64,000 nt of DNA. Origin: a virus (taxonomy: Duplodnaviria > Caudoviricetes). The stretch lies in IMG/VR virus record IMGVR_UViG_3300037420_002493, positions 10,055 to 74,054 of that record; one strand, 5' to 3'. The notes beneath the pieces were generated by a model, which saw nothing but the letters and a program-made list of their open reading frames with translations, made no database searches and had not been told where the DNA came from. This document shows positions 4,269 to 49,938 of this stretch, piece after piece; within the stretch, counting starts at the first letter, position 1; the number at the start of each line of letters is the position of its first letter. Both the position numbers and the translations under genes were made by a program.

Positions 4269-5708
4269 ATGGCAACTGCAACACAAACGCCACTCAGCAT
4301 TCTAGGTGTAGAACTATTTCTTCCTGGTGTACGCCGGGATAGTCTAGGTCGAACAAAAGAATGGGAGGACTGGGAATTAAATGAAATGGCGAGCTCTTAC
4401 AACTCTGTTGTAAGAGATGTGCATGATGCTCCAGTCTTGATTGGTCACGATGGAAAGACCCTAGAACAAGATCAAGGGCTTCCTGCAAACAGCTACGCAT
4501 CTCCTGAGATGACTCCGCAGGGAGAAGCCTCGTATGCTTGGCTAGAACGCGCCTATGTTGAGAACGGAAAACTTAAAGGCGACTATCGAAAAGTCAATCC
4601 TAGTTTTGCTCAAGCGCTAGAAAACGAGACCTACAAAAAGCGTTCAATTTCAATCTATCCGCGCAACCATCCAGACAATCCCACTCCTGGTAAGCTCAAC
4701 ATTCGCCATGTTGCATACGTTGCCATTCCTGCTGTGAAGGGAATGAAAGATCACGCTTTTGGAGAGGGCAATTTTTTTGAGTTTGAATTTGCTGAATTTT
4801 ACGGTTCTGCGTGGAGCGCGATCGCTCGGCTCATGCAAGGACTGCGCGATCGGATGATTGAAGATGCAGACCTAGAAACTGCTAACGCCACATTTCCCAC
4901 AGAACTGCTGGATGCGATTCAACGACAGGCAAACGACTCTAACGATTACGTCACCGTGAGTCAGTTTGTTGACGCGCTGAACAGTGTTGACGCATTACGC
5001 GCTCAAGTTTCCCAACTATCCATGCTCATGCAAGGCTCTGACCTTGCCTACTCGGAATCAACTATGAATCTCAAGAAAATGATGGCTGACAAGGGAGTAA
5101 CCGCTGTCAAAGGCATTGCTCCTATGGATTTGCAGGCAATTATCAAAGGTGACAAAACCGCCACATCGGAGCAGATGCAAATGATTGCTGACGCTTTAGG
5201 AGTCAGCGTTGATGAGTTAAAACCGAAAACTACCAACATGAGCGAACCAGAAGACTATCAGCAACTCAAGGCGCAAGTTGCCGCCTTAGCCACCGAAAAC
5301 AAACAACTGCGCGACGATCGTGAGCGCGATCGGGTGACGAATTTCGTTGAAAAATTGGTTCAAGAACGCAAGGTTCTCCCTGCTAACAAGGCAGAAGTAA
5401 TTGAACTAGCAATCAGCTTGCCCAATGATAAAACGCTCAACTACAGCGAAGGAACGGGGAGCGTTGAAGCCACACCGCGCGATCGTTATCTCAGCCAGCT
5501 TCAAAAAGGCAAGGAACTCTGGAGCAATTCCCAGATGCCAACCAACCCTTCAGACGCGCCGAACAATTTTAGCGAAACCGCCAAGCTCGAAGGGTTTGAC
5601 GCTGAATCGACCAAAACAGACCAACTGATTAAGCAGCGCATGAAAGACCAAGGCTGTGACTATGCCGAAGCGGTCAATCAACTCATTTCTACTGGCGAAA
5701 TTCGCTAG
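4269..5708 (+). CDS. Mu gpI-like prohead protease/scaffold with internal XRE-like HTH
   Basis: APVLIGH; YKKRSISIY; HVAYVAIPAVKGM; coiled-coil scaffold C-term; directly upstream of capsid genes. Confidence 0.8.
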   Translation: MATATQTPLSILGVELFLPGVRRDSLGRTKEWEDWELNEMASSYNSVVRDVHDAPVLIGHDGKTLEQDQGLPANSYASPEMTPQGEASYAWLERAYVENGKLKGDYRKVNPSFAQALENETYKKRSISIYPRNHPDNPTPGKLNIRHVAYVAIPAVKGMKDHAFGEGNFFEFEFAEFYGSAWSAIARLMQGLRDRMIEDADLETANATFPTELLDAIQRQANDSNDYVTVSQFVDALNSVDALRAQVSQLSMLMQGSDLAYSESTMNLKKMMADKGVTAVKGIAPMDLQAIIKGDKTATSEQMQMIADALGVSVDELKPKTTNMSEPEDYQQLKAQVAALATENKQLRDDRERDRVTNFVEKLVQERKVLPANKAEVIELAISLPNDKTLNYSEGTGSVEATPRDRYLSQLQKGKELWSNSQMPTNPSDAPNNFSETAKLEGFDAESTKTDQLIKQRMKDQGCDYAEAVNQLISTGEIR

Positions 5709-7848: not shown

Positions 7849-8294
7849 TGAGCATTGCCACGATCGAGGCTGACTTAATCACCCGACTGCAAACCCTGGA
7901 AGCCGATCAGAACCTCAAGGTGATTGCGTTTCCCACGAATCCCGATGAGCTGTATCGTCCCCCCTGCGATCGCATTATCGTCGGATTCAACCGGGAAAGC
8001 CTATCTCGTCCGAATACCACGAGCTTTACAGCCCCCATCATTCAAGAACGGCAACTCGACTTTGGCATTTACGTTCAGATTCGAGACCTTCGAGGACGGA
8101 AGCAATCAAACCCAAGGCTGGTTGAGCTAATGGATTTGATTCGAGACCTGATTACTGGGATGCGTCCCACAGGCGACAAGACTCATTGGTTTTACCAAAC
8201 CGCAGGCAGCTTTGTTCAATTAGCCGAAGCGTTTTGGTTGTATTCGATGAACTTTTCCATCTCGGTGCCCTATACCAAACGCGATCGGAGTTAA
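7848..8294 (+). CDS. Neck/tail completion protein, Mu gp37-like
   Basis: IATIEADLITRL; LMDLIRDLITG; position after gp36. Confidence 0.65.
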   Translation: MSIATIEADLITRLQTLEADQNLKVIAFPTNPDELYRPPCDRIIVGFNRESLSRPNTTSFTAPIIQERQLDFGIYVQIRDLRGRKQSNPRLVELMDLIRDLITGMRPTGDKTHWFYQTAGSFVQLAEAFWLYSMNFSISVPYTKRDRS

Positions 8295-8296
8295 AT

Positions 8297-8467
8297 ATGT
8301 CCAGCGAAACCAAAGAAAAATACCGCGTCGTTCAGCAAATCACGTTTAAGTCAGGTGATGTTTTTCCAGATCAGGAAATTGAACTGACCCCCAAAGAGGC
8401 TGAACCACTCGTAGCAGCTTCTGCCCTCGTTCCGGTTAAGGCAGAAGAGAAAGCTAAGAGCAAGTAA
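8297..8467 (+). CDS. Small virion protein
   Basis: IELTPKEAEPLVAASAL, shared with 7180-7425. Confidence 0.5.
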   Translation: MSSETKEKYRVVQQITFKSGDVFPDQEIELTPKEAEPLVAASALVPVKAEEKAKSK

Positions 8468-10359: not shown

Positions 10360-12177
10360 ATGCCGATCGCAGCTTCAGCAAGAATTGACCTAATCGACTC
10401 TGACCCGAATGTTGTTTCTAACATCCAAGGTGGTCCAGAGCCACAGGATGAATGGCTGCATTTTCGCTTCTCACAGGACTATCCTCAATACCAGCGAATG
10501 CGGCGTGACCCGCATGTTCGGTCTCGCCTAGATAAACGAGTTGATGCAATCCTAGGTCGCAGTGTTTTGGTTGAGGCTCCCAAGAAGCGGGGAGCTGCAA
10601 AAGCCGCAGAGAAAGTTCAGTCCATTCTCGATAAGGTCAAGTACGAAGCGCTTTGTAAGGCGGTACTGAAGTCAGGAATGCTGATTGGATTCAGCGTGCT
10701 GCAAATCGATTTTGTGGAAGATGAGGACGACAAGACTCTACTGATTCCAAAGTGGAAGTTTGTTCCACAATCACGCTTCACCTTTGCCTATCACAAGCCG
10801 GACGATCGGGCAGTTCTAGTGGTCAATGATGATGATCTTGACCCCGCAACCGAGATTTTATTAGTTCATGGCTATGAGCTGAGGCTACTCACCAAACGTG
10901 CTCCTATCTACGGGGAGCGAGTTCCCAAGAACCGATTTCTATGTTTTACGTTTGACTCTGAAGATAGCCCGTGGGGTTTGGGACTGGGCTACTCCATTTT
11001 CCCGTGGTGGGAAGTCAAACGGTGTGCGCTCAAAGCGTGGTTGCTGCACTCCGATCGACAAGGTTCACCACCGACGATCGGAACCACCCCAGCCGACCTA
11101 GACCCCAGCCATAACGACGACCACAAGAAGATCATTGCTGACTTTGAGGGGTTTCTGAAGGCGTTATCTCCGAGCAATTGGGCATCGTTTCCTGAAGGGT
11201 TTACGGCTCAGTTATTGGAAACGATCGGGCAGAGTGGACCAGAGGTGCATCAAGCCCTCATTCGGGAAGCAGACAACCAAATCAGTAAAGTTGTGTTGGG
11301 AGAAGTCCCCTTCTCGGACAAAGACACAGGCAGTTATGCCGCAAATGCATCTCAGGTCGAAGATAGAAGCTCAACCCTGACCGACGGGGATTGCAACCTA
11401 CTGGATGAGCAACTCTATGACGGGTTGTGGTTGCCAACTTTTGAGCTAAACAGCATCGTCGATGATGCCCCGATCGTGCGTCGGGAATCATTCGCAGACA
11501 CGCGCAAAGCCGCCCTTGAGAAGCAGAAGCTAGAGCATTCCAAGGCGGTAGCTGACCGAGACAAAGAACTGCAAGAACTGGGCTATCGTCGCACCGCTCA
11601 GAGTGTACTAGAAATTCATGGTGAAGGGCTGGAGTCGATTCAAACTGACACCGAGAAGCCGCCATTGGTGAGCACGATCGGGGTCGGTGGAACGCAAGCT
11701 CTATTAGGGTTGCTACAGCAAGCGTCGTCTGGAGAGTTGCCGAAAGAGAATGCGGTGGCAGCAATGGTTGCGATGTTTGGGCTTGACGAGAAAACCGCTG
11801 GCGCGATCGTGCCAGAACCGAAGCAAGAAAACTCGCAATCGTCGTCGCTCGATCAGCTTTTTGGAGGAGATACCGCGCCGACGGATACGACTAACTCAGA
11901 TACCCCAGCACCTCAACCGCAGTTTACCGAGCCAGAGTCAGAGCAGGTTGAGACGGTACGGGATGAATTACCCAGCGAGTTTGCCGCAGCCGTTGCAGCG
12001 TTGAGCCGACTGGATACGATCGGGCTTGAGGAATTTGGACTGGTATGGGATGACACGACCGAGTTTGATGAAGCGATCGCAGCGCTAAACCGAATTGAGG
12101 TAGATGGAATAGAGGTTGATATCTCCCTTGACTTTGAGGAGTGGGGGATTTGCCAACCCGATCGTAGTTACTCATGA
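10360..12177 (+). CDS. Portal protein (Mu gp29/DUF935 family) with acidic C-terminal extension
   Basis: YQRMRRDPHVRSRLDKRVDAILG; PWGLGLG; ISKVVLGE; GSYAANASQ. Confidence 0.9.
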   Translation: MPIAASARIDLIDSDPNVVSNIQGGPEPQDEWLHFRFSQDYPQYQRMRRDPHVRSRLDKRVDAILGRSVLVEAPKKRGAAKAAEKVQSILDKVKYEALCKAVLKSGMLIGFSVLQIDFVEDEDDKTLLIPKWKFVPQSRFTFAYHKPDDRAVLVVNDDDLDPATEILLVHGYELRLLTKRAPIYGERVPKNRFLCFTFDSEDSPWGLGLGYSIFPWWEVKRCALKAWLLHSDRQGSPPTIGTTPADLDPSHNDDHKKIIADFEGFLKALSPSNWASFPEGFTAQLLETIGQSGPEVHQALIREADNQISKVVLGEVPFSDKDTGSYAANASQVEDRSSTLTDGDCNLLDEQLYDGLWLPTFELNSIVDDAPIVRRESFADTRKAALEKQKLEHSKAVADRDKELQELGYRRTAQSVLEIHGEGLESIQTDTEKPPLVSTIGVGGTQALLGLLQQASSGELPKENAVAAMVAMFGLDEKTAGAIVPEPKQENSQSSSLDQLFGGDTAPTDTTNSDTPAPQPQFTEPESEQVETVRDELPSEFAAAVAALSRLDTIGLEEFGLVWDDTTEFDEAIAALNRIEVDGIEVDISLDFEEWGICQPDRSYS

Positions 12178-12376
12178 TCGTTGCAGGAGTTGATCTTCAG
12201 TTGGGTTTTGAGGAAGCTTGAGTTGCCAACCCACTCTCAATCTTCAAGCTCGTTGCAGGTTTAGGATCAGGCACTTGCCAACCCACTCTCAATCTTCAAG
12301 CTCGTTGCAGTTGCTGCATTTCAGCAACATACCGACGCCCTTGCCAACCCGCTCTCAGTCTTTATGATCGTTGCAG
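12150..12376 (-). CRISPR. Mini CRISPR array, 4 repeats and 3 spacers
   Basis: Repeats 12150-12186 (degenerate, 37 nt), 12223-12258 and 12275-12310 (identical, 36 nt), 12341-12376 (5 mismatches). Minus-strand repeat CTGCAACGAGCTTGAAGATTGAGAGTGGGTTGGCAA. Spacers 36, 16 and 30 nt. Confidence 0.9.
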
Positions 12377-14316
12377 GGCAACTCCCAAAGCGAAAGCTGG
12401 ATGTGGTTTTGAAGCCGTTTTGACAAGCGCTTTCTTGAAGATCTTGAAGATACCCCAGTTTTGCGGGTTGCTGACTCGCTACAGGTGTCACGAAGTCTAG
12501 CTGTGTCAGGGATTTCAGAATTTACAAGCATCCCTTTTCCTCCACTTGCCTGCGTCCTTCGCAATGTATGCGGATTGCGGGCAGTTCTAGGGATCGGAGG
12601 CACTAACACAACGGTTAATCCCTGACCAGACGAATCCGGTGATCCTTTGGCTGCATCCTCAGCAGGTTCACAAACAGTCGTGACTTGTACTTGACTGTTA
12701 GGCTCTGGCATGAGCAAGCCTTGTCGAATCGCTGGGGCAATTCGCAAGGTTCTGTTTTGGACGGGCATCAACTTGCCACACGTCCCGTAAGTGACAGAGC
12801 TAAGGAAGTTTGCACTTCCCACTCCGTCTCTGTCTCCTCTCCACCCACAACCCCCGTGTTTGGGATTGCAGTAGTAGACGCGGTTTCGCGGCTTGTGCCT
12901 GCGTCCGCATTGAGGGCACACTTGAGAGGTAAAGGCTTCACTGGCTTTCTCGGTTCCGATTCCGCCCGCCAGTTGCATCTTTTCCTCTAAATACTTCGCT
13001 TGGGTGGGCATCTCCCACATGTTGTTTCGAGACACTTGTTTGATGCGACGATTGCCCTTCTTTCTGCCCTTGGGCAATCGGTCCAAATCACCCACGTAAA
13101 TTTTGCCGACCTTACGTTCAACTGCCCAATCGACAGCGGTACGAGTAATGGTGTGGTTGGCATAGTTAAGTCTGATCCGGTAATAATCAGCGGCTTTTTG
13201 CTGACCCATGTAGAGACGATAATCCCGCTTGCTTCTGCGTCTCAAGGGTTTGGTGGATTGCTGATTGAGTGCAATGAGTGAGCGTCCCTTACCATCCAGC
13301 CCTTCTCTACGACGTTGCCGAATCATTCGCCATGCGTACTTGGCATCGCTGCCTGTGCGCTTTTTGCCTTGCCGTTGTCGCTCATTATCTTCTTCCTGCA
13401 ATCTGCGATAGGTAGCCTTCTCCTCAACAGAGAGGTATTGTCGGAATTGCCCCTTAAACACTCGCGCTCTTGCACGATTAATAGCTCGGTAGCGTCCGTC
13501 TCGCTCCCGCTTGAGAGCACAGATATCTTTGCCAGAAATAGTTGCCGTTTCTGCGGTTCCCTCTCCGTTCTGCACGGCAATGACAATGGCACGCTTCTGT
13601 CCAAAGTCTACGGCTGCCACTTGGGTGAGTTCAGGATTCGGTTCAACGGTGTGCTTTGTGCAGAGATGAAGATAGTAATGACCACTGCGAGATTTAGAAA
13701 TCTTAGCGTCACCGTCTAGCACTTTACCCTTTAGCTCTGGAAGTCGCAGCTTCAGTAGATAGGGCTTTGCACCCAGAATTAGCGTGTCTCCTTGGCGCTT
13801 GACGTGTAAGCCGCTGAAAGGAACTGGATAGTAGGACTTGAATCGTTTAGGTAGTTCAGCCTCGTGATCGCCCCGCTTGCGACGAGTAAAACATGCCTTA
13901 ATAGCTGCCTCAAAGGTGCGACAAATCGCATCTGCTGACTGTGCTGGAATGCCATAATCAGGTTTCTTGCTCTTACGGACAGCGATAACCAACCGCTCGA
14001 CACCCTTCTCTTTTCCTTGTTTGGCAGGCTTATTCTCCAACTGCTGAGGGTAGAGACTGTATTCCTGATTGGTGAACGTGCGAGTCAGTTCGTGTGCCCA
14101 TCCAAGCTGGAATAGATTTAAGTAGCTGTTCACCTCGTAAGGTTTGCAGCTTGGGTCAGCCTCTTTTAGGCGCTTGTACTCGTTGCGTTTGTACTGGAGA
14201 TGTTCAACCAACTGGTTATAGATGCGACGACTCGCTGCAAACATTCCTTCCAGCATGACTCTCTGGGTTGGAGTAGGAAAGAATTCAATTGTGAGGGTGC
14301 GAGTCGCTTCCATCAC
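12355..14316 (-). CDS. CRISPR-associated TnpB-derived (Cas12-like) RNA-guided nuclease, rearranged RuvC-II
   Basis: OrfB-type N-term FFPTPTQRVMLEGMFAASRRIYN; RuvC-I AAVDFG; RuvC-II IYVGDL with downstream SEAFTS; Zn finger CPQC..C..C; RuvC-III DRDGVGSAN; adjacent array. Confidence 0.85.
   Translation of the reverse strand: MMEATRTLTIEFFPTPTQRVMLEGMFAASRRIYNQLVEHLQYKRNEYKRLKEADPSCKPYEVNSYLNLFQLGWAHELTRTFTNQEYSLYPQQLENKPAKQGKEKGVERLVIAVRKSKKPDYGIPAQSADAICRTFEAAIKACFTRRKRGDHEAELPKRFKSYYPVPFSGLHVKRQGDTLILGAKPYLLKLRLPELKGKVLDGDAKISKSRSGHYYLHLCTKHTVEPNPELTQVAAVDFGQKRAIVIAVQNGEGTAETATISGKDICALKRERDGRYRAINRARARVFKGQFRQYLSVEEKATYRRLQEEDNERQRQGKKRTGSDAKYAWRMIRQRRREGLDGKGRSLIALNQQSTKPLRRRSKRDYRLYMGQQKAADYYRIRLNYANHTITRTAVDWAVERKVGKIYVGDLDRLPKGRKKGNRRIKQVSRNNMWEMPTQAKYLEEKMQLAGGIGTEKASEAFTSQVCPQCGRRHKPRNRVYYCNPKHGGCGWRGDRDGVGSANFLSSVTYGTCGKLMPVQNRTLRIAPAIRQGLLMPEPNSQVQVTTVCEPAEDAAKGSPDSSGQGLTVVLVPPIPRTARNPHTLRRTQASGGKGMLVNSEIPDTARLRDTCSESATRKTGVSSRSSRKRLSKRLQNHIQLSLWELPCNDHKD
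12434..12470 (-). ncRNA. Candidate anti-repeat (tracr/omega-scaffold part)
   Basis: Minus strand CAACCCGC-11 nt-ATCTTCAAG ATCTTCAAG is collinear with the repeat complement CAACCCAC-5 nt-ATCTTCAAG. Confidence 0.45.
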
Positions 14317-14522
14317 GATTCCTCAACTAACTCATCTTCATGGGCAGAGTCTTCAAACAGGTGTGGACGATCGAACTGGACAAAATACGTGAATCCAGGA
14401 CGCGACCAGCATGAACCGGGAGCGGTTAACGCATAGAGCACAGCACGAATCACACCCGCATCGTTATCGCTCGTTCTGACCCGTTGCCCAATTTGAAACC
14501 GACAGGGAGGCAGACTATACAC
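14313..14522 (-). CDS. Small SH3/KOW-like protein
   Basis: RFQIGQRV..GVI..PGFTYFVQFD; paralog at 48389; stop overlaps effector ATG. Confidence 0.6.
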   Translation of the reverse strand: MYSLPPCRFQIGQRVRTSDNDAGVIRAVLYALTAPGSCWSRPGFTYFVQFDRPHLFEDSAHEDELVEES

Positions 14523-14784
14523 GGTGACACTCCCCCTGTGGAATCTGGGCTAATAACTCAGGCGCATCAGCTTCTAGATGAGTAAGATTCTCGTTGACCA
14601 ACCTTCTCCCAGCCCTCCAAGTCTCTTCGGTAGAGGGAAGAATCCGATCGGTCTCAGTGTCTCCTATCTCCTGCCCAAAGGGGTCAAGAACGGCTGTTTT
14701 GTAGCCTCCGATGACTTCGATCGGGCAGATTAAATGACCGCGATATCTAAAGCTGCAACCCCACAGATAAATGTCTTCTCTCAT
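14515..14784 (-). CDS. Hypothetical protein
   Basis: Paralog of 48129-48392 (RGxLI..VLxPFGxEIGDT..APEL). Confidence 0.6.
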   Translation of the reverse strand: MREDIYLWGCSFRYRGHLICPIEVIGGYKTAVLDPFGQEIGDTETDRILPSTEETWRAGRRLVNENLTHLEADAPELLAQIPQGECHRV

Positions 14785-15071
14785 GACTCAACTACTCCAA
14801 TAATCCTGTCTTCGTGAATGGTTTCTACCTCATCTCCTTCGTCTCCACTCTCAAGGTGGTAATCCCATCCAGGCTCACAGTTCTCCGCAAAGGCAATGGC
14901 AACGCGAGTAAACCGACAGCCGCAAATTCTGCCTTCAGCAATCTCGTCTTTGCTGCTCCCTCTCACTTTGTAGCGAACGGTTTGCCAAATCTCGTATTTG
15001 GGCTTTGGAGTAGGGTTACTCAGGTAGTGGTAGAGTTTTTGTTCAAGTTTGGTTAATGCTGCTTTTGCCAT
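14781..15071 (-). CDS. Small SH3/KOW-like protein
   Basis: PKYEIWQTVRY..GRICGCRF..PGWDY. Confidence 0.6.
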   Translation of the reverse strand: MAKAALTKLEQKLYHYLSNPTPKPKYEIWQTVRYKVRGSSKDEIAEGRICGCRFTRVAIAFAENCEPGWDYHLESGDEGDEVETIHEDRIIGVVES

Positions 15072-15074
15072 GTC

Positions 15075-15428
15075 TCAGTCCTCCACAATGTCAGTTTCGT
15101 AAACCTCGATAATCCTGGCATCGGCTTCGATGCGGTAATACCAGCCGGGGTCTTCGCCTCGACCTTGAAGAAAGGCAATACCGACGCGCACGAAATGGAA
15201 GCCACAGACCCGACCTTGTTTAATTTCTGGGTTGTCGTTGTCGTAAGATTTATCGTCGTAAGACGTGTATTGAACGAGTTGCCACAAGTTGTATTTGGGC
15301 TGAGTTCTGGGGTGATTCAGCAACTCTTGCAAGTGCTGCTCAAATTCCTCAACCGGATCTGGCGTCACGCCAGTATTGATAGGGGTGGTCATAAAAACCT
15401 CGTAAATTAGCCCAACTGATAAAGACAA
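15075..15428 (-). CDS. Small SH3/KOW-like protein
   Basis: PKYNLWQLVQY..GRVCGFHF..PGWYY; tandem paralog of 14781. Confidence 0.6.
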   Translation of the reverse strand: MSLSVGLIYEVFMTTPINTGVTPDPVEEFEQHLQELLNHPRTQPKYNLWQLVQYTSYDDKSYDNDNPEIKQGRVCGFHFVRVGIAFLQGRGEDPGWYYRIEADARIIEVYETDIVED

Positions 15429-15859
15429 ACTTGCTCTGCATTGCTCAGTCCCAACTCGCGCAGAATGAAGCGCGAAATCTCCGAAGGGAACTGAGTTAAA
15501 GACAGCTCAATGCGGTTGCTAAACACACCGAGAAAGTGAGCGCGTCCTTGCTGTGACACTGCTTCTTCGATCAGGGCGTCTAAATCCTCAATCACCGATT
15601 GCAGAATCTCAGACTCATCGATCGCAAAGCCCTCTTGGATGTAACTCACTAAACGCCTTGCTTTTGGAGGTAAGCCCCCATGCTTGAGAATTAGGTCGGT
15701 ATCTACCTGGTCAAGACATTCTCTTGCCAGTTCTCGTGCGGCAAGTTCTGCCTCAGTGACAGTGCCAGTGGCGTATTCCTTGCCGTTGATTTTGAAGACG
15801 ATTAAGCCGTAGAAGTCGTCTTGGGACTTCTGAATTGCGGTTCTAACTGCTGTGAGCAT
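15407..15859 (-). CDS. Hypothetical protein
   Basis: 150 aa ORF in the same operon. Confidence 0.55.
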   Translation of the reverse strand: MLTAVRTAIQKSQDDFYGLIVFKINGKEYATGTVTEAELAARELARECLDQVDTDLILKHGGLPPKARRLVSYIQEGFAIDESEILQSVIEDLDALIEEAVSQQGRAHFLGVFSNRIELSLTQFPSEISRFILRELGLSNAEQVCLYQLG

Positions 15860-15930
15860 GACTCGCCTAATTCCTAGTTCAGTGGTGTAGAGGGTGAGGC
15901 ATCCTGATCGGATCAGGATGCCAAAGGGAG

Positions 15931-16197
15931 TTAGAAGGCTTGGCAGGTCTGAGCGAGTTCTTTCTCTTCGACGCGCCAGTCTTGACCCGTAGCAGCTTTT
16001 AAGGTTCGGTTGAGCTGGTCGTTAGCCCAGATATCTTGACGAACCAGGACATCGAAATCTTGAAAATCTAGGGTGGCTTGGCAGCTTTCAAAGCGTCTGG
16101 CTTTGACGTGGTAGCGACGAGTAACGACTCCGGTATAGGTAGCGCTCGGAGCGGTGATGAGACGGGTTTGCTTGGAGGGTGCGATCGTTGTTAGCAT
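15931..16197 (-). CDS. Hypothetical protein, first gene of leftward operon
   Basis: 88 aa; AAAGGA upstream. Confidence 0.55.
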   Translation of the reverse strand: MLTTIAPSKQTRLITAPSATYTGVVTRRYHVKARRFESCQATLDFQDFDVLVRQDIWANDQLNRTLKAATGQDWRVEEKELAQTCQAF

Positions 16198-16364
16198 GAC
16201 GTAAATCCTTTCGTGGGGTTTGTGGAGGAAGCGCTTGAAGTTGTCCAGACCCAGAGCGCTTTCTCTATGCTTTCAATATTACCTATTAAGTAATGCTTGT
16301 CAAGTAATACCTATGAAGATAAGATATATCTGTAGGCAAACGAGATACTTGAGAGGTGATACCT

Positions 16365-16619
16365 ATGGGGCAATTCTTGGTGAAGATCACCTATACGAAG
16401 GACTTTCCGGGAATTGGAAAGCAGATACGCGAATACAGACGGCAATCAGATAAGCCTCTAGCTGAGTTGGCAGCAGAGGCAGGTATCAGCGTTCCTCACT
16501 GGAACCGAGTTGAAAACGAAAAAGTTGGAGAGCTGCCACTAGAAACGCTTCGAGGTATCGAAAAGGCTCTTGGCGTTGATCTAGGAGTACGCTTCGATGA
16601 TTCATCCTCAAGCCAGTAA
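16365..16619 (+). CDS. XRE-family HTH repressor, divergent from effector operon
   Basis: IGKQIREYRRQSDKPLAELAAEAGISVPHWNRVENE. Confidence 0.85.
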   Translation: MGQFLVKITYTKDFPGIGKQIREYRRQSDKPLAELAAEAGISVPHWNRVENEKVGELPLETLRGIEKALGVDLGVRFDDSSSSQ

Positions 16620-16756
16620 CCCTCTCGCTCTTCCATCGGTTTCCTTGGAGAGCCGATCGCGGGTTAGCAAAGCAAATAGAGGATAATGAAATTAGTCGAT
16701 TTAAGAGTGTTCGCCAGTTTCTCAACTCAATTCCCACACGTCAACATGAGATCACT

Positions 16757-17206
16757 ATGATCCCGATGTTCAGTGCTAACGGAAAATTACCGCCTGGTAT
16801 CCATCGTTGTACATGGAAAGAATTTGTGGAGCGCTTTGGAATCACGCCCCATCGCTTGAACCTAATTGCTGGGCTTAAAAGGGCAATGGAGCACTTACAG
16901 ATAGCGGGATGTTCCATTATTTACATTGACGGCAGTTTTGTAACCGACAAAGTAGTGCCTGGCGATTTCGATGCTTGTTGGGAAACTAGAGGTGTTGATG
17001 CAAAAAAACTAATCTCGATCGCTCCCTCCTTGTTGGACTTTTCTAACAGACGAGCTGCTCAGAAAGCAGAGTACGGCGGAGAGTTATTTTTTGCTGGAGT
17101 ACCCGCAGATAATGCTGGAAATTTATTTCTAGATTTCTTCCAGATGGATAGAGATGGTCAGCCCAAAGGGATTATTGCTATTGATTTAGAGAGGTGGCAG
17201 CCGTGA
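16757..17206 (+). CDS. DUF6932-like nucleotidyltransferase-fold protein (putative toxin)
   Basis: GKLPPGIH..W.EF.ERFG; YIDGSFVTDK..PGDFD. Confidence 0.7.
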   Translation: MIPMFSANGKLPPGIHRCTWKEFVERFGITPHRLNLIAGLKRAMEHLQIAGCSIIYIDGSFVTDKVVPGDFDACWETRGVDAKKLISIAPSLLDFSNRRAAQKAEYGGELFFAGVPADNAGNLFLDFFQMDRDGQPKGIIAIDLERWQP

Positions 17207-17622
17207 TTGAAAACGAGCAGCAATATCACATCACGCAGGCTCAAGCTCAGAAGTTTGAAAAGGCTTTAGAGCGTATGCTTCAATCATCCGAGCAAGAGCG
17301 CGAGACAAATCCTCTGCTTTGGCAAGCTCAAATCTCTGCTTTGGAGAGTCAGCTTAGCGACCTGCGCGAAGAAATAGAGGAATACAACACAAGCCGCGTG
17401 AAGAGCGAGGGGCTTGAGACTAGATACGGTGAACTGATTACGGTACTGGTTGAAGATGTAATACGGGTAAAACAGGAAAATCGACCGCTTTCTAAAATTA
17501 TTGCCTCGATTGCAGTTGCAAGAGTAGTGGTGACAATCTTGCATGTTTTATGGAGTATGCCTATAGAGGGTACTATCTCTCTAAGCTCAGCACTTAAAGA
17601 AAAGAAGCAATCTGAAGGATGA
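17203..17622 (+). CDS. Partner of DUF6932-like gene (helical antitoxin-like N-term)
   Basis: GTGA overlap with upstream stop; IENEQQY..AQISALESQLSDLREEIEEY. Confidence 0.55.
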   Translation: MIENEQQYHITQAQAQKFEKALERMLQSSEQERETNPLLWQAQISALESQLSDLREEIEEYNTSRVKSEGLETRYGELITVLVEDVIRVKQENRPLSKIIASIAVARVVVTILHVLWSMPIEGTISLSSALKEKKQSEG

Positions 17623-17723
17623 TCGATTTCAGCGACGATCGTGATGACTGAATCGGATTGACGGGCGATCATTTGTCCTAGTTTGGTAATCTTGTAGAAT
17701 TAACCCCCTAGCTTAGGAATTCT

Positions 17724-18062
17724 ATGAGTAGCCAGAATCAGATTACAGCGATGTTAATGCTCAAAGTCTCCGGTCGAGACACCTGGCAAGGCATGGGAGA
17801 AAAAGCCTATAGTGTCCTTCCACGAACCGGAGAGTTTATCGAGATAGACGTTGATGGGACAGCCTATTGGTGCAAGGTTGTCGCTGTTGCTCATTCATCC
17901 GAGCCAACGACCAATATTGGCGACATTTATGCCGTCCCACTGGGAAAATCAACGGACGTGCTAAAACAACTTTTTGATTCTACTGAGTCACCTCATTTTG
18001 ATTCTGCTGAGTGGTCTCAGGAGCTTGAGGAGAAAGATGCAGGGTGGATTGGTAAGGTATAG
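17724..18062 (+). CDS. Hypothetical protein
   Basis: 112 aa; AGGA upstream. Confidence 0.55.
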   Translation: MSSQNQITAMLMLKVSGRDTWQGMGEKAYSVLPRTGEFIEIDVDGTAYWCKVVAVAHSSEPTTNIGDIYAVPLGKSTDVLKQLFDSTESPHFDSAEWSQELEEKDAGWIGKV

Positions 18063-18225
18063 CAGGGCTGGCATTTTTGCTGCGATCTCCTTTGTTGATT
18101 TTGCTGATCAAGGACTTGAAATCGGTCAGACGTGACCGATTTGGATTGCTTTTTGACTTGTCGAATTCAACAAGTTATCTGCTAGAGATCTGATCGCAGC
18201 CCTAGATAGTGATTAGCAAACCTGA

Positions 18226-18255
18226 TTGACAGTCCTCCATTCATCAAGATATATT
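18226..18255 (+). promoter_or_regulatory. Sigma70-type promoter upstream of NYN gene
   Basis: TTGACA-18 nt-TATATT. Confidence 0.6.
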
Positions 18256-18341
18256 GGGGTTAAGTCATCACCAGTTGGGCTTTATTAGCTCGCTGGCTCC
18301 CGCTGGGTTACGATCCAGTGGGTATTTTGCTTTATAAGGGC

Positions 18342-18980
18342 ATGGATCGCGTAACTTTTATCATTGACGGATTTAATCTGTATCACTCAGTTCGTCAAGC
18401 TTCTAGGGATTCAGGTGGTTCGTCTACAAAATGGCTTGATATCAAAAGCTTGTGTTCGTCGTATCTCTATCTTTTTGGTAGAGCCGCCGTCCTCCATGAG
18501 ATTTATTATTTTTCTGCTCTAGCTAACCACCTAGAAGCCGTTAATCCTGACGTAACCGAAAGACACAGGAGCTTCATCAAGTGTTTACAGGCAACGGGTG
18601 TGAAGACGGAACTTAACCGATTTAAAAGAAAGTCCATGACCTGTCCCTCATGCAGGCACGGTTTTAACAGGTATGAGGAGAAAGAAACAGATGTGGCAGT
18701 GGCAGTCAAACTGCTGGAGCTATTTTTCACTGATAACTGTGACATAGCGGTACTTATAACAGGCGACACTGATTTGGCTCCAGCTGTTAGAACCGCCAAT
18801 CAGATTTTTGCCAGCAAGAAAGTTGTTTTCGCCTTCCCTTACAAGCGAAAGAATCAGGAGCTATTGAGATTAGCGCCAGGGTCGTTTGACATCAATAAGA
18901 GGAAGTATTTGGCGCATCAATTTTCTGATCCATATATACTGCCAGACGGTTCAAAGATTCACAAACCTAGCAGTTGGTAA
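18342..18980 (+). CDS. NYN/LabA-DUF88 (PIN-fold) ribonuclease
   Basis: FIIDGFNLYH; EKETDVAVA; ITGDTDLAP. Confidence 0.9.
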   Translation: MDRVTFIIDGFNLYHSVRQASRDSGGSSTKWLDIKSLCSSYLYLFGRAAVLHEIYYFSALANHLEAVNPDVTERHRSFIKCLQATGVKTELNRFKRKSMTCPSCRHGFNRYEEKETDVAVAVKLLELFFTDNCDIAVLITGDTDLAPAVRTANQIFASKKVVFAFPYKRKNQELLRLAPGSFDINKRKYLAHQFSDPYILPDGSKIHKPSSW

Positions 18981-19063
18981 AAACTCTATAGATTAAACAT
19001 AAGGCTATGCTTTAAAGGCAAAAGTTATTGCTATTGCTACCCTACAAGCATTTAGGCAGTCCT

Positions 19064-19603
19064 ATGACCGTATCCACCTACAAATGGACGATCGACCGTT
19101 ATCATCAAGCCGTTGATGCTGGGATTTTTCATGACCAGTCGATCGAGCTATTGAAGGGAGAACTTGTTTTAATGCCACCTGAAGGACCGGAACACGCTCA
19201 TCGCTGCGAGACGGCTGCACGGTATTTAGAGCGTCTGTTTGGTGAGGGTTGGTGGTCACGTCAGGGTAAGCCCATCACTCTAGCCGATTCTGAGCCGCAG
19301 CCTGATATCGCGATCGTGCGTGAGCAAGATTACACGAACGGGCATCCTACCCCTAACGACATTCGGCTTGTGGTGGAATACGCCTACAGCACTCAAGCAA
19401 AAGATACGGGCATGAAGCGAGACGTTTATGCAGAAGCAGGCATTTTAGATTATCTAGTGATTGACCTGAAACGATCTGCCGTGATTCATTACGCTAATCC
19501 TGTTGAGGGCAGCTACACCACAGAGCAAACGTTCACCGATGGCATGATTCAGATTGGGCAGGTCACGATCGATGTTCGGAGACTGCTGAGATCTGTACTT
19601 TAG
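19064..19603 (+). CDS. Uma2-family endonuclease
   Basis: WTIDRYHQ; ELLKGEL; EPQPDIAI; LVVEYA; KRDVYAEAGI. Confidence 0.9.
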   Translation: MTVSTYKWTIDRYHQAVDAGIFHDQSIELLKGELVLMPPEGPEHAHRCETAARYLERLFGEGWWSRQGKPITLADSEPQPDIAIVREQDYTNGHPTPNDIRLVVEYAYSTQAKDTGMKRDVYAEAGILDYLVIDLKRSAVIHYANPVEGSYTTEQTFTDGMIQIGQVTIDVRRLLRSVL

Positions 19604-19677
19604 AAGTGATGACCAAATCGGTCAGCAGTCCTGCTACAGTAACCTGGTTGTAGCTGCAATTTCTAAGAGTATCAGTA

Positions 19678-20271
19678 ATGGATAATGACCCTCTACTAAC
19701 AGAGAGTGAAATTGAAAGGCTTCAGGAGCGGCTGAGTCAGGAGGTAGGAGATTTTGTTGTGGGTCTTGCAAGGGAAGGGGAGCGAGCAGCGGTGGTTTTG
19801 GGTGCCGCTCGCTTAGATGTAAGCCTTGAAAACCTTCTCAAGAAGTTAATGCACCCTCATCCTGGTGGTTCGGATAATCTCTTTGATTCTCAGCGTCCTC
19901 TTAGCTCCTTTTCTACCAAAATTGCTCTTGCATATAGATTAGGCGTGATCGACAGAAGCTTTGAACACGCTTTGCAGATGGTAAGAAAAATTCGGAATGA
20001 TTTTGCTCATTCCATTGCTGTTGCGAGTCTTTCTGCCCCACCCTACAAAAATCAGCTTAACGAGCTAATTAAAGACGTTAAAAAAGATGGGGATTCTTTC
20101 GACAATATAGCGAGTGGCTTGAGAGAACAAAGATTTCCTGAAGAAGTATTGGATTTCTGTGCTGCCGTTATGATATTGCTCATGCGACTTGAAATGCTGA
20201 CAGAAGTGAGCGTTCAGTTCCAACCAGCCAGGACAGCAAAACTAGATAAAACTCGATTTCTAGAAAATTGA
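19678..20271 (+). CDS. MltR-like / HEPN-motif protein
   Basis: ERAAVVLGAARLD; PLSSFSTKIALAYRLG; RNDFAH (Rx4H). Confidence 0.7.
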   Translation: MDNDPLLTESEIERLQERLSQEVGDFVVGLAREGERAAVVLGAARLDVSLENLLKKLMHPHPGGSDNLFDSQRPLSSFSTKIALAYRLGVIDRSFEHALQMVRKIRNDFAHSIAVASLSAPPYKNQLNELIKDVKKDGDSFDNIASGLREQRFPEEVLDFCAAVMILLMRLEMLTEVSVQFQPARTAKLDKTRFLEN

Positions 20272-20432
20272 AGCTGCTTGAGTCGCACAACAACAATTGG
20301 TCATAGCTGACCAATTTCAGGAAGGGACGATCGTCCCTTCCACTGAATCCATTCGGTGAAGCCAACACATAAATCATCCCTTCTTTTCTAAACAGCGTGT
20401 GCTAATGTCAGGGAAAGAGTTAACGCTGTATT

Positions 20433-20648
20433 ATGCCAAGAAGCACAAAGATTTCGACAAACATTGTTTTAGGTGACACAGCCGATGAGCGCGATCGTCG
20501 CCTAAATTCATTACGTGAAATCGCCTCATACTGCGGCTATACAGGTAGGTATGGCGGTAATATTAGCGAGTTGCTATGTGCGATTGCCGATTTACCGGAA
20601 GAGGATAGAAAGGTGATTGCGGGCGTGCTCCAGAAATTTTTGAAATAG
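20433..20648 (+). CDS. Small putative DNA-binding regulator
   Basis: 71 aa; NISELLCAIAD; precedes operator-containing promoter. Confidence 0.45.
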   Translation: MPRSTKISTNIVLGDTADERDRRLNSLREIASYCGYTGRYGGNISELLCAIADLPEEDRKVIAGVLQKFLK

Positions 20649-20651
20649 GGG

Positions 20652-20680
20652 TTGACGCTTCATTTAGCATACGCTAAATT
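20652..20680 (+). promoter_or_regulatory. Promoter with palindromic operator
   Basis: TTGACG-17-TAAATT containing ATTTAGC-N4-GCTAAAT (20662-20679). Confidence 0.6.
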
Positions 20681-20737
20681 AGATTCATCGAGAGCAAACG
20701 CCACACACCGCTCTCCCAAGTTTTAGGAATCGCTACC

Positions 20738-20965
20738 ATGCCTCAAGCTACTCAAGCCCAAGTCCAGTCTCTCATCGCTCAAGGTTACGTTTGCCCGGAG
20801 CGGATTGCCGCTCTACCATCCGACGCGGTTCTAACCCGTATCCACTGGGTTTATATCAGTGACGAAGAGTATTCGTTAGACCTTGACGCATGGATTAACT
20901 ATGCCGAGGCTCAATACCCTGGTCTCGATGTCGAAGCTCTCGACATGGCGATCGGGTGCTGCTAG
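20738..20965 (+). CDS. Hypothetical protein
   Basis: 75 aa; AGGA upstream. Confidence 0.5.
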   Translation: MPQATQAQVQSLIAQGYVCPERIAALPSDAVLTRIHWVYISDEEYSLDLDAWINYAEAQYPGLDVEALDMAIGCC

Positions 20966-21058
20966 TGCGACAAAGCCGCGATGGTGCCGGATCGAATCCG
21001 GTTCGCTCTCTCGCCTCATTCGAGGCACAACGTAAACACTTTTTTGGAGAATTCAATC

Positions 21059-21571
21059 ATGCTGACTATCAAAACCCTCGCAACCGCTTCTCTCGAACAA
21101 CTCAGAGCCTTTGCAGCAGAACACGGCATCGTTCCCGTTGGCGATAAGCGCCGTTTGGATACTTACCGTGATGCGATTCAAGACTTCTTCGCTGCTATGA
21201 AAGAGGTGGTTACAGAAGGCGTTGTTGTAGCTGCCCGCGTTGCTGACCAAGTAGCAGAAGCTGTCACCAGCAAAGAGGCGAAAGCATTCTATGGCAAGGT
21301 TTACGCTGCTGCTAAGGTGGTTGGGAAAATTTTCATCCATCTCATGCTGATCACGATCGCTCTTGGAATGCTTGCCCGTGACGTGTGGCAGAGTCGGGAG
21401 GAGGTGAAAGCCTCGATCGTGACTCTCTATCACCGCTCAATCTGCTCTACACAGGATTGGCTCAAAGCTCAGTCGAGAAAGGGTAGAGACGCGGTGAGGA
21501 TCAACATTATTCAGCCCGTTCTCAACCATCGTGAGCGGATTCGGGCAATGGCAAGAGCAGCCGCTAGGTGA
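21059..21571 (+). CDS. SAP/HeH-like N-term plus hydrophobic segment
   Basis: LATASLEQLRAFAAEHGI.PVGDKR; paralog at 49411. Confidence 0.65.
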   Translation: MLTIKTLATASLEQLRAFAAEHGIVPVGDKRRLDTYRDAIQDFFAAMKEVVTEGVVVAARVADQVAEAVTSKEAKAFYGKVYAAAKVVGKIFIHLMLITIALGMLARDVWQSREEVKASIVTLYHRSICSTQDWLKAQSRKGRDAVRINIIQPVLNHRERIRAMARAAAR

Positions 21572-21665
21572 TGGTAGTCGTAATGAAATCGGTCATAGCT
21601 GACCGATTTCACCTGCATAAAGTCAGGCATAATGGGGCAGCCTCTACGACTCTACACCTCACCTA

Positions 21666-22991
21666 ATGTCGATCAATTTTTCAGAGCTTAAAACAACTGA
21701 AGATGTTTACATCGAAATTGGTCGCCGCTATGTCGCTGAAACGCGGCTCCAGGAAGCGATCGCGGCTGCATTAAACGGCACTTACTATGAATTTGCTGCC
21801 GCCAAGAAGAAGGCGTCAGGTAAGAAAAACTGTAATCCCGCAAAGAGTCATTTCTGCCAGACCCCAAACGGAACAGGAAGCTGTGTCTCGCTGGGCAAGC
21901 AATGCAAATTCAAGCCAAGTGGCAGCGTCAAGCAAGCCGCAGTTTACACTGGCGAAAATGCGTCATCCGCGATCGCGGCACCTGAAAAACCTAAAAAATC
22001 AACAAAGAAAACGACCAAGAAGGCAGAAGCGGTTCCTGTAAAAGAAATTGACACAGCAGGAATTCATGAAGATTTTGTTCCTCTTTATAAAATGGCTAAT
22101 GGTTTCAAGCCTGATGAGATTAAACTGACGGATGATCAAGTCGAGGCTGCGAAGGGGTTTATGGAAGACAAATATAAAGGGACTCCAAAACAAAAGCAGA
22201 TCAAAAAAGAAGGCAAAACCACAGACGAGGAGTCGCAGGCTTTGGCTAATTGGCTAGGAATCTCCTATCAAGAAATGAGTGCCAGGATCTGGAAAGCTAC
22301 TTCGGTAGAAGATTCTGACGGGGGAATTCTAGCGGCGGATATTTTAGCAGCTAAAGCTTTGCATAAATTACCATCCGCTACAGCCGAACAAATCGCCAAA
22401 GGTGCTGAAAAGAAAGGGGTTTACGATTTTGATCCTACCAAGCCATTAAAACGATGGATGAGGATTAAAGGCGAGGGTGGGGCAGAAGAGTTTATCAAAA
22501 AATACCAAGATAATATTGGGAAAGAGATCACCGAGGATAATTTTTTTGGAACTTCCCACCTTAGCGCCAATCAAATGTCGGCATTCTCAACAGGTGCAAA
22601 CGTAATCTATCAGGTTGAGGCAAAACTTGATGGGACGGGGCAAGGGAAATATGTAGATCACTACAAGAAGACAATGAGCGAAGGGGAGATTCTATTCCCT
22701 CCATACTCAAAATTCAAAGTTGTCAAAGTCGTCGCGCCAAAAACAGATCCCCTAAGCAAAGAGGAACATACTTCTATTGCTATCCATGATGCAGTCGAGG
22801 AAGCAAAATTTATGTCGTCTTTGATTGGAACCTCAATGAAGGGGCAATACAAGTATCTCACAGGAAAAACACTACCAAAAGACTGGAAAGACCAAGTAGA
22901 GCTTGCCAAGAAAGCCAAAGAAAAATTGAAAAACTTCGATAGCCAAGATGGGCATCTTGATGCCTATACCATCCATTTACAGGAGATCTAA
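21666..22991 (+). CDS. Head-associated protein with C-terminal ADP-ribosyltransferase (R-S-ExE type) domain
   Basis: LKRWMR; FFGTSH; SEGEILFPPYSKFKV; Cys-rich N-term. Confidence 0.7.
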   Translation: MSINFSELKTTEDVYIEIGRRYVAETRLQEAIAAALNGTYYEFAAAKKKASGKKNCNPAKSHFCQTPNGTGSCVSLGKQCKFKPSGSVKQAAVYTGENASSAIAAPEKPKKSTKKTTKKAEAVPVKEIDTAGIHEDFVPLYKMANGFKPDEIKLTDDQVEAAKGFMEDKYKGTPKQKQIKKEGKTTDEESQALANWLGISYQEMSARIWKATSVEDSDGGILAADILAAKALHKLPSATAEQIAKGAEKKGVYDFDPTKPLKRWMRIKGEGGAEEFIKKYQDNIGKEITEDNFFGTSHLSANQMSAFSTGANVIYQVEAKLDGTGQGKYVDHYKKTMSEGEILFPPYSKFKVVKVVAPKTDPLSKEEHTSIAIHDAVEEAKFMSSLIGTSMKGQYKYLTGKTLPKDWKDQVELAKKAKEKLKNFDSQDGHLDAYTIHLQEI

Positions 22992-22999
22992 TAAATCAA

Positions 23000-23248
23000 A
23001 TGTCTGACAATGAAGAGTATGTTTTAGACAGCGCAAAAGAAGAGCAGTTTGTTAAAGAACTGAAAGGTTTACTTGCTGGTGATGGCAACGCATTCGATCG
23101 AATGAATGCGGGACAGGGCGGCGAAGGATTGCCAAAGTGGTTTTTAGATCTTGCAGAAAACCTAAGAAAGCAGGGTGTTACCGACGAAAATTTTGATGAA
23201 TGGTACGCAAAAAACAAGAAAGACAAGGGAAAGAAATTCGACGATTAA
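23000..23248 (+). CDS. Small charged protein, candidate ART immunity
   Basis: Starts 8 nt after ART stop; inside the same palindrome-bounded block. Confidence 0.45.
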   Translation: MSDNEEYVLDSAKEEQFVKELKGLLAGDGNAFDRMNAGQGGEGLPKWFLDLAENLRKQGVTDENFDEWYAKNKKDKGKKFDD

Positions 23249-23366
23249 AACCTATGTCCGAGAGTCGATCGTAAAACTCATTACAACAGCCAAGCAAATC
23301 GGTCATAGCTGACCGATTTCAACTAGATAAAAACGAGCAGATTTAACCCAAGACAAGCCCCTCTCA

Positions 23367-24104
23367 ATGCTCAAACTTCCCACCAATCCAACTGCCGATC
23401 AGATTAAAGCGATCGTCACCGCCACCATCCGTGAAACATTCGAGGACGACGCCACTCTCACAGGCGATATCAAGCCCTATGGGAAAAGCGGATGGCAGGT
23501 TACGTACAAAAGTGGTGATATTGAGTTCATCCTCGAATGGGACGGCAACGAATTCACCAAATATCCCAAGCCTAGTAACTTCAGCGAGTTTGAGTTTGGT
23601 GCCATCATTGACAAGGTTCTGAAGTGGAACGGTCTAGATATTGGCGTTGAGTACAACCCAGGTCAAGTAAGGTTCCCAGGTCGTAAGAACTCAAAGAAAC
23701 TACGATCGGGTTATGGGCATATCCGTAACCATGTGGGGGCAGACGGAGAGGCATTAGACTGCTACATCTATTCAGGGTTGCTAAATGACTCGCAATCTGG
23801 GTCTAATTTGATTTTCCGCGTCACTCAGCTTGCCGACGATGGCGACTTCGACGAGTACAAGTTTATGCTCGGGTATGCCAGTAAGGGAGCTGCTCAGGAT
23901 GCATACTTGCAGGAGATGCCCAAAGAGTTCTTCGGAGGAATTGAAGCGGTCGATCGGGAGCACATTGACGACTACCGCAAACCCTCGAACTACGCAGAAT
24001 CTGAGGTTCTGTCAGATAGTGAGTGGGATGGATTAGCAGGAATTGATGATGCGTCGATCGCGGATGCGCTAGACACGATGGCTGATCCTGGAAATCGGTC
24101 ATAG
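23367..24104 (+). CDS. Phage protein with inorganic-pyrophosphatase-like domain
   Basis: YGHIRNHVGADGEALDCYI; DEYKFMLGY..AQDAYL. Confidence 0.7.
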   Translation: MLKLPTNPTADQIKAIVTATIRETFEDDATLTGDIKPYGKSGWQVTYKSGDIEFILEWDGNEFTKYPKPSNFSEFEFGAIIDKVLKWNGLDIGVEYNPGQVRFPGRKNSKKLRSGYGHIRNHVGADGEALDCYIYSGLLNDSQSGSNLIFRVTQLADDGDFDEYKFMLGYASKGAAQDAYLQEMPKEFFGGIEAVDREHIDDYRKPSNYAESEVLSDSEWDGLAGIDDASIADALDTMADPGNRS

Positions 24105-27023: not shown

Positions 27024-27722
27024 ATGAAACCCTATGAATTTCTAGTTCGGTGGAACTCAGAAGGTGTGCTGCAAGGGGCACACGTCATTTTTCAAGAGCA
27101 GTTAACGGATTCTCTTGGGAACACGACTCCTGTGATTCATCCGGCTCAACCTGTGGCGATCGGAGAAGCGCAGGGCTTTCCCTTGGAAGATGTTCTAGGG
27201 GAAGTAAATGCAGCAGCACTAAAGACTATTGATGAGTTAAAGCAGTCTCACCAAGACGAGACTGAGGCAAACACCGCGGCACATAATGCTGCAATTCAGC
27301 AGCTTCAAGACGCGCATCAGACCGAATTGCTCGTTCTAAAACAAGAGCACGAAGCGAGTTTGAGCCAGTTGCGGCAATCCTATGAGCAACAGCTTGAGCA
27401 ACTCACCCAAGAACTAGAATCGTTCAAGAACCCTCCCATTAAGTGGAGTCAGTTTCGTTTAGCCATGATGGGTAATGCGGCTTACGATCGGGTGGAAGAA
27501 TCGCTATCTGACAGCAAAGAGGGAACGCGGCTGCTGATTAAGTTGACCACAGTGGTTAGCATGGACAATCCGAACCTTGTGGTGCTCCAATCGGTCTGGA
27601 ATACAGCGCTTGATTTAGTGGGCTATCCAACCGCAGATGACATTGCAGAGTGGAATGCAAACGCAACGGGCACGAATGTTCCGATCCGATTCGATGACAA
27701 CGGGAAAATCACAATAATCTAA
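27024..27722 (+). CDS. Hypothetical coiled-coil protein (fibre-associated)
   Basis: 232 aa ORF. Confidence 0.55.
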   Translation: MKPYEFLVRWNSEGVLQGAHVIFQEQLTDSLGNTTPVIHPAQPVAIGEAQGFPLEDVLGEVNAAALKTIDELKQSHQDETEANTAAHNAAIQQLQDAHQTELLVLKQEHEASLSQLRQSYEQQLEQLTQELESFKNPPIKWSQFRLAMMGNAAYDRVEESLSDSKEGTRLLIKLTTVVSMDNPNLVVLQSVWNTALDLVGYPTADDIAEWNANATGTNVPIRFDDNGKITII

Positions 27723-49322: not shown

Positions 49323-49352
49323 TTGACATTTGTTCTACGTCTGGCGTAGATT
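49323..49352 (+). promoter_or_regulatory. Promoter with TCTAC-N7-GTAGA operator (second copy 48849-48865)
   Basis: TTGACA-18-TAGATT. Confidence 0.6.
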
Positions 49353-49410
49353 AGATGCATGAGAGCAAACACACCTCAACGCTCTCCCAAGTATTTAAGG
49401 AGTCTTTCAA

Positions 49411-49938
49411 ATGCTGAATATCGCAAACCTTGCTACTGCTTCTCTGGCTCAACTCAAGTCCTTCGCCTCTGAGCACGGGATCAACCCCGTGGGTGACAAG
49501 CGCCTACTGACCACATGGCGCGATGCAGTTCAAGACTTCTTTGCTGCTACCGCTAAGGAAGCCGTTTCTCTCACGCAGGAGACGATCGAGGGTGCGATTG
49601 AATGCGCCCGTGAAGTCGTCACCCATGACAACACGGTGGTTGCTGCAAATGCCGCCTATACCTGGACACGCAAGGCAGTCAAGTTCACCGTCAAAGCGGC
49701 ATGGTCATCAATTCTGGTGGGTATCGCTCTCATCTGCATTGCCGTAGACCTTTGGCAAACCCGATCGGAAGTGAAGGAAGTTTTGATAACTGTCTACCGA
49801 CGCCAAGTGTCACGGATGCAGGACAGATGGTGCATCTGGCGAGAAATGGGCGACGCGGTAATTCAGGTGCACGTCACCGAAAGAATTGTCGACTACCGTG
49901 AGCGGCTCCAAGCCATGGCTCGCGCTGCTGCCAAGTAA
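49411..49938 (+). CDS. SAP/HeH-like plus TM protein, paralog of 21059
   Basis: LATASLAQLKSFASEHGINPVGDKR; both end AMARAA. Confidence 0.65.
   Translation: MLNIANLATASLAQLKSFASEHGINPVGDKRLLTTWRDAVQDFFAATAKEAVSLTQETIEGAIECAREVVTHDNTVVAANAAYTWTRKAVKFTVKAAWSSILVGIALICIAVDLWQTRSEVKEVLITVYRRQVSRMQDRWCIWREMGDAVIQVHVTERIVDYRERLQAMARAAAK

Follow-up and report, generated by a model that had tools for sequence, protein, structure and literature searches.

The effector gene and its array lie in an accessory block of a cyanobacterial provirus

The window, by which we mean the whole 64,000-nucleotide stretch analyzed here (positions 10,055 to 74,054 of IMG/VR record IMGVR_UViG_3300037420_002493), is part of a 74-kb provirus record assembled from a soil metagenome. 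The provirus is a soil cyanobacterial prophage, and the window carries Mu-type virion genes, portal, protease and capsid among them. An ORF encoding a TnpB/Cas12f-like effector separates the portal gene from a block of minus-strand genes, and its stop codon falls inside the first of four repeats running from 12376 down to 12150. The features of this region are as follows.

12156..20674, no strand assigned: accessory block of ~8.5 kb with the effector, the array and neighboring genes (blastn synteny against the related phage contig L035)
12355..14316, minus strand: TnpB/Cas12f-like effector ORF (P0001), 653 aa (Pfam, NCBIfam, AlphaFold, Foldseek)
12463..12470, minus strand: anti-repeat inside the tail of the effector ORF, pairing with the 3´ part of the repeat (R4 12345-12352)
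12341..12376, minus strand: repeat R4, 36 nt, first in the direction of transcription, overlapping the effector stop codon
12311..12340, minus strand: spacer S3, 30 nt
12275..12310, minus strand: repeat R3, identical to R2
12259..12274, minus strand: spacer S2, 16 nt
12223..12258, minus strand: repeat R2
12187..12222, minus strand: spacer S1, 36 nt
12150..12186, minus strand: terminal repeat R1, degenerate, 37 nt, overlapping the last codons of the portal gene

Both S2 and S3 are shorter than the 34-37 nt that is the norm for spacers in the family. Rfam gave no family match, and no cas1, cas2 or cas4 gene was found adjoining any member of the effector family. Homology with L035 ends at 12155, the start of the terminal repeat R1, and positions 12156-20674 are missing from that contig by blastn synteny. 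The cassette is thus an accessory block, and relatives without it exist. No DNA match to the window was found among GenBank phages.

We also noted other repeated elements in the window. A family of 24-bp palindromes (AAATCGGTCA, a 4-nt loop, TGACCGATTT) is present in >20 copies at many gene ends between 894 and 63183 (for example at 21586-21609 and 23296-23319) and occurs in the related contigs L034 and L035 as well. A direct repeat of 139 nt with 73% identity links 21059-21197 and 49411-49549, and L035 1314-1364 also matches the window at ~49351-49400.

The effector is a TnpB-derived compact type V-like protein

The effector ORF matched Cas12f1-like_TNB (PF07282, 6e-11) and HTH_OrfB_IS605 in Pfam. 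In the AlphaFold model, a core of approximately residues 1-530 is folded with confidence, followed by a disordered tail (residues 531-653). The closest solved structures in Foldseek were AsCas12f, TnpB, Cas12m and LaTranC, with AsCas12f and TnpB the best and a probability of 1.0 for the match of the model to Cas12f and TnpB. The fold is shared with AsCas12f at a TM-score of 0.70 (target-normalized), and with the TnpB of ISFba1 and of ISDra2 and with LaTranC, which also were matched, while the sequence is only 12-16% identical to solved structures. Together, the Pfam match and the Foldseek results reveal a split RuvC domain with a zinc-ribbon (TNB) insertion, and the effector is a TnpB/Cas12f-like, TnpB-derived compact type V-like protein. 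It does not fit the transposon-borne TnpB of IS200/IS605 elements: its score against NCBIfam guided_TnpB is 77 bits, under the cutoff of 100, and arrays of 3-11 repeats replace the single guide. No TnpA-type gene adjoins the nuclease in the gene tables of nine relatives, which are non-exhaustive lists.

Residues D237, D497, E435 and E460 and the zinc ribbon are invariant over 19 effector homologs. The position of the canonical RuvC-II Glu is occupied by Gly409 (window 13085-13095), and Gly is present here in all 19 homologs; cleavage by the effector is thus not assured. The invariant E435 and E460 could substitute for the missing Glu in the D-E-D triad, and the active site may be rearranged.

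Approximately 23 effector homologs were found at 42-62% identity, the named ones from Leptolyngbya and Floridaenema. In most of the relatives for which downstream DNA is available, the first repeat overlaps or directly follows the end of the ORF and is followed by a same-sense array; family arrays have a period of 70-79 nt and spacers mostly of 34-37 nt. The same orientation and architecture are seen in six of these loci (L005, L007, L009, L011, L015 and L046) and in cyanophage CL131. For L047 we found no array, and for L013 no clear one; L006, a relative from Leptolyngbya FACHB-541, has a single repeat (11863-11898) and no array. This single-repeat locus corresponds to an omega-RNA-like state within the effector family. 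Another isolated element, an orphan repeat-like sequence at 4064-4100 of L009, is located ~390 nt past the array; the gene 60 nt downstream of this element matches, at its start, spacer 1 over the spacer's 3´ half. In IMG/VR, the Leptolyngbya FACHB-541 contig was the only close relative found, whether for the effector or for the S3 target gene, and the only effector relative among GTDB species genomes was a distant one in Floridaenema.

A covarying anti-repeat places the guide 3´ of the repeat

The array adjoins the effector gene on its downstream side and in the same sense. RNAalifold analysis of eight loci gave an 8-bp helix between the anti-repeat and the 3´ part of the repeat, with compensatory double changes in six pairs, and in four loci a duplex search detected additional complementarity, at 45-55 nt upstream of the first repeat. 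Since the anti-repeat within the effector tail covaries with the repeat, the guide lies 3´ of the repeat, and the order of the guide RNA is a tracr/omega-like scaffold, the repeat and a 3´ spacer. In TnpB and Cas12f, the guide likewise lies 3´ of the scaffold or repeat, and these enzymes recognize a motif that is 5´ on the non-target strand. A 5´ PAM or TAM is established for every TnpB/Cas12f-type enzyme characterized to date (review table in PMC11641405). The 5´ flank is therefore the right side to examine, and the choice of this side in an earlier reading of the window (the sequence-only reading) is borne out by the array orientation together with the covarying anti-repeat.

The DNA encoding the tail (window 12377-12760, residues 531-653) contains motifs that are conserved at the nucleotide level as far as CL131. 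This region looks to be constrained as an RNA scaffold as much as it is as protein. Such an overlap of the scaffold with a disordered coding tail sets the window system apart from Cas12f, TnpB and TranC, although the arrangement is reported for Cas12n (bioRxiv 10.64898/2026.03.27.714800).

The spacers are diverged versions of head genes that the phage itself carries

In minus-strand orientation, each of the three spacers matches a plus-strand site elsewhere in the window (S1 at 23370-23405, S3 at 21720-21749 and S2 at 11809-11824). With their 5´ flanking triplets, these sites are as follows.

23367..23405, plus strand: ATG flank and S1 self-homolog (25/36), the start codon and codons 2-13 of an InPase-domain gene
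21717..21749, plus strand: ATT flank and S3 self-homolog (22/30), codons 18-28 of a head-morphogenesis/ADP-ribosyltransferase-like gene
11806..11824, plus strand: ATC flank and S2 self-homolog (12/16), in the Mu-type portal gene

For S1 and S3, the match exceeds chance, being attained in ~1/300 shuffles each. The S2 match is not above chance by itself, and a 13/16 match is present elsewhere in the window. Its coding homology is nevertheless supported: its four mismatches all affect the third base of a codon, and the orthologous portal site of L035 matches S2 at 13/16 positions. Each of the three sites begins in frame, at codon position 1, and of their 23 mismatches, 16 are third-position changes. 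These patterns show which matches are real and mark the spacers as diverged versions of the phage's head genes. A second 22/30 match to S3 (27286-27315, minus strand) was dismissed as chance, being antisense and without a codon pattern. We also discarded the idea that the guides self-regulate the phage's own genes, the self sites being 25-31% mismatched.

AT-N triplets flank all three self-homologs

The sequence-only reading had proposed a 5´-ATN PAM from the triplets 5´ of the self-homologs. When we re-read them, all three (ATG at 23367-69, ATT at 21717-19 and ATC at 11806-08) were directly adjacent to the homologous sites. The first base beyond the repeat differs from unit to unit and agrees with the target in 3/3 cases; the PAM-side boundary of the repeat is therefore correct. 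The worry that the repeat might be 37 nt long leaves this side untouched, as the doubt concerns only the PAM-distal end. The repeats of the window end in CAA, those of L005, L007, L011 and L046 in CAG, and those of L015 in AAC or AAG; all of these triplets differ from ATN, as self-avoidance by an array requires.

It also had been suggested that Met and Ile codons would keep AT in orthologs, and this held for one part of the data. In L035, the one close ortholog compared, both Ile triplets are retained, ATC at the portal site and ATT before the S3 site, where the target protein is 84% identical. The start-codon flank of S1, in contrast, is not positionally conserved, the equivalent flank being ATA in L034, by a register shift only, and CCC in L036. 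ATN codons make up 7% of codons, and the probability that any dinucleotide is common to three random coding sites within 6 nt 5´ is 0.02. The caveats given with the original proposal, n = 3 and flanks taken from homologs, still stand; every flank was read from a site that, by definition, escapes cutting, and those of S2 and S3 would mean nothing if these spacers were truncated at the PAM side.

Four extra, independent flanks were obtained from self-homologous spacers of two orthologous systems, L005, which is 62% identical to the window system, and Floridaenema (L015); L009 spacer 1 and L015 spacer 8, with only partial or gapped homologs, were left out of the set. For L005 spacer 4, the match (31/35 positions, ATG flank) lies in a small gene 3 kb upstream, and L005 spacer 2 matches an overlapping site at 34/36 positions with a GCA flank. 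Positions 2-3 of the spacer 2 match also differ, so homology has already been lost at that end. With a 37-nt repeat boundary, Floridaenema spacer 10 has a 33/34 match with an ATC flank, and spacer 3 a 34/42 match with a GTA flank. The Floridaenema repeat is likely 37 nt, since the base after the core mismatches both targets and CL131 repeats have an extra G at this place; this boundary was chosen after the data were seen. Even with the L015 boundary left free, ATN in two of the four extra flanks has a probability of 0.039. The proposed motif thus gained two further instances, ATG and ATC, alongside two flanks, GCA and GTA, that depart from it. When the seven flanks were pooled, T was present at -2 in 6/7 and A at -3 in 5/7, with a purine at -3 in 7/7 and at -4 in 6/7. 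The systems combined here share only 42-62% identity, and their PAMs could differ. Within the candidate motif, the best-supported position is T at -2. The 3´ flanks revealed no shared motif.

Two L005 spacers (8256-8291 and 8400-8434) match overlapping sites at 5002-5063 within a single 88-aa gene, 3 kb upstream of the effector. Nearly all of the mismatches of these two spacers are at PAM-proximal positions 2-7, with one more at position 27, a distribution that resembles that of escape mutations.

Searches for exact targets

Exact or near-exact protospacers for S1-S3 were not found in IMG/VR, JGI metagenomes, 401 sampled cyanobacterial genomes, GenBank phages or sequencing runs, nor did exact S1 and S3 queries match in IMG/VR. 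In JGI metagenomes, there were no matches to the window repeat or to a degenerate pattern allowing for every possible coding sequence of the S1 peptide, and the 16-base repeat core gave single, chance-like matches only in IMG/VR. The S3 target protein had no match in the 401 sampled cyanobacterial genomes, among which the Floridaenema array matched above chance only in its own genome. Reads from the source soil metagenome held no variant at the self-homologous sites, and two other soil sequencing runs yielded scraps only, with the sites uncovered.

Relation to known systems

The window system resembles the putative V-U2 locus of CL131 and TranC/Cas12f-like systems. Among described systems, it comes closest to the uncharacterized, putative type V-U2 (C2c8-like) locus of cyanophage vB_AphaS-CL131 (PMC6293099), which likewise is cyanophage-borne and has a TnpB-like gene followed by a same-sense array of 36-nt repeats with no other cas genes. 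Both loci have the conserved DNA motif CAGCTT...TGG directly before the first repeat, repeats ending in TTGGCAA(G) and spacers that vary in length. The CL131 locus differs in that its ORF, with an annotated length of 466 aa, stops short of the scaffold region, and in that its 10 spacers have no detectable self-homologs; these spacers also matched no other phage among GenBank phages. Protein similarity is weak (BLASTP 4e-5 over 138 aa; hhalign probability 53%, for the zinc ribbon only). For membership in V-U2, the effector was compared with CL131 gp061 alone, to which it has weak protein similarity; locus architecture and RNA motifs are in common. No PAM is given for V-U2 in a recent review (PMC11641405).

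Cas12f, TnpB and TranC share with the window system a tracr-like anti-repeat, and all read a 5´ PAM or TAM. The ATN triplet differs from the TTTR/TTR motif of Cas12f and from the TTGAT TAM of ISDra2. There also is a parallel in archaeal SPV-type viruses, whose virus-borne mini-CRISPR arrays are used in conflicts between related viruses. These arrays, like that of the window, are small and viral, with spacers corresponding to genes of close relatives and mismatched to the carrier's own copy, but the window virus also brings its own effector, and its exact target virus was not found.

A candidate 5´-ATN PAM and a possible role in excluding related phages

In the model that we favor, the prophage encodes a compact type V-like effector derived from TnpB, along with a three-spacer array that would be transcribed together with the effector gene. 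Each repeat would pair with the anti-repeat encoded in the 3´ tail of the effector, and the spacer would serve as a 3´ guide. The spacers probably were acquired from versions of the portal, head-morphogenesis and InPase genes in related phages, which would explain why the self copies match only imperfectly. For each guide, the self site has at least four mismatches in the first 16 nt, such that the phage itself would be spared, and the likely role of the system would be the exclusion of related phages. We infer, with a probability of roughly 55%, that the AT-N triplet 5´ of all three self copies is the 5´ PAM of a presumably active effector, approximately 5´-ATN and possibly the looser 5´-RTN, with related phages as the putative targets.

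A somewhat doubtful alternative to a strict ATN is that the motif is real but looser or shifted, with only T at -2 required (5´-NTN or RTN) or with four nucleotides (RATN). The pooled counts of T at -2 and of purines at -3 and -4 fit this reading, and the GTA flank agrees with RTN. RTR is the PAM of Cas12h. Other known PAMs of compact type V enzymes include GTN for Cas12k and AAN for Cas12n (review table in PMC11641405). Seven flanks are, however, too few to separate these variants, and five of them do have A at -3. It is unlikely, if less so than the remaining readings, that the AT flanks of the window and the two in other loci arose by chance or codon usage and that the real PAM is different or longer. 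The numbers are tiny, the S2 match falls short of significance on nucleotide identity alone, ATN accounts for 7% of codons, GCA, GTA and CCC flanks occur, and the look-elsewhere p values are only 0.02 and 0.04. These two values, however, rest on separate data sets and together give roughly 1e-3, and the boundary was set by repeat conservation rather than picked to fit.

Decay could account for several features of the locus. The array might be a decaying relic, or the effector might only bind DNA, in which case the flank would be at most the acquisition motif of the host's adaptation machinery and not a PAM. No cas1, cas2 or cas4 accompanies any family member, two spacers are 16 and 30 nt against a norm of 34-37 nt, the repeats at the ends are degenerate, Gly stands in place of the canonical RuvC-II Glu, and the relative L006 keeps one repeat. 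We nonetheless regard this as improbable, given that the ORF is intact, that the four acidic residues and the zinc ribbon are invariant in 19 homologs, that R2 and R3 are identical and that anti-repeat pairing is kept by compensatory changes. The short spacers also are compatible with function, as guides of ~16 nt suffice for TnpB-type enzymes.

If the ATN reading is true, a two-base 5´ motif on a compact nuclease would be of interest to tool developers, and the PAM would let one predict which related phages the prophage can exclude; at present, the ATN PAM is a testable hypothesis with modest statistical support. It would be a long shot to go further and propose a distinct uncharacterized lineage, with a folded core of ~530 aa, a short 5´-ATN PAM and guides down to 16 nt, that is used by cyanobacterial prophages to exclude relatives.

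We also observed that six sense-strand protospacer homologs (window 11809, 21720 and 23370; L005 5063 and 5036, minus strand; L019 1538, minus strand) all begin at codon position 1, for which the chance probability is ~0.001. An ATN PAM alone does not explain this pattern, since only 39% of the ATs in window ORFs are at codon positions 1-2. Within the distinct-lineage proposal, such a strict start (6/6) would point to an unusual, possibly translation- or frame-linked, choice or acquisition of spacers.
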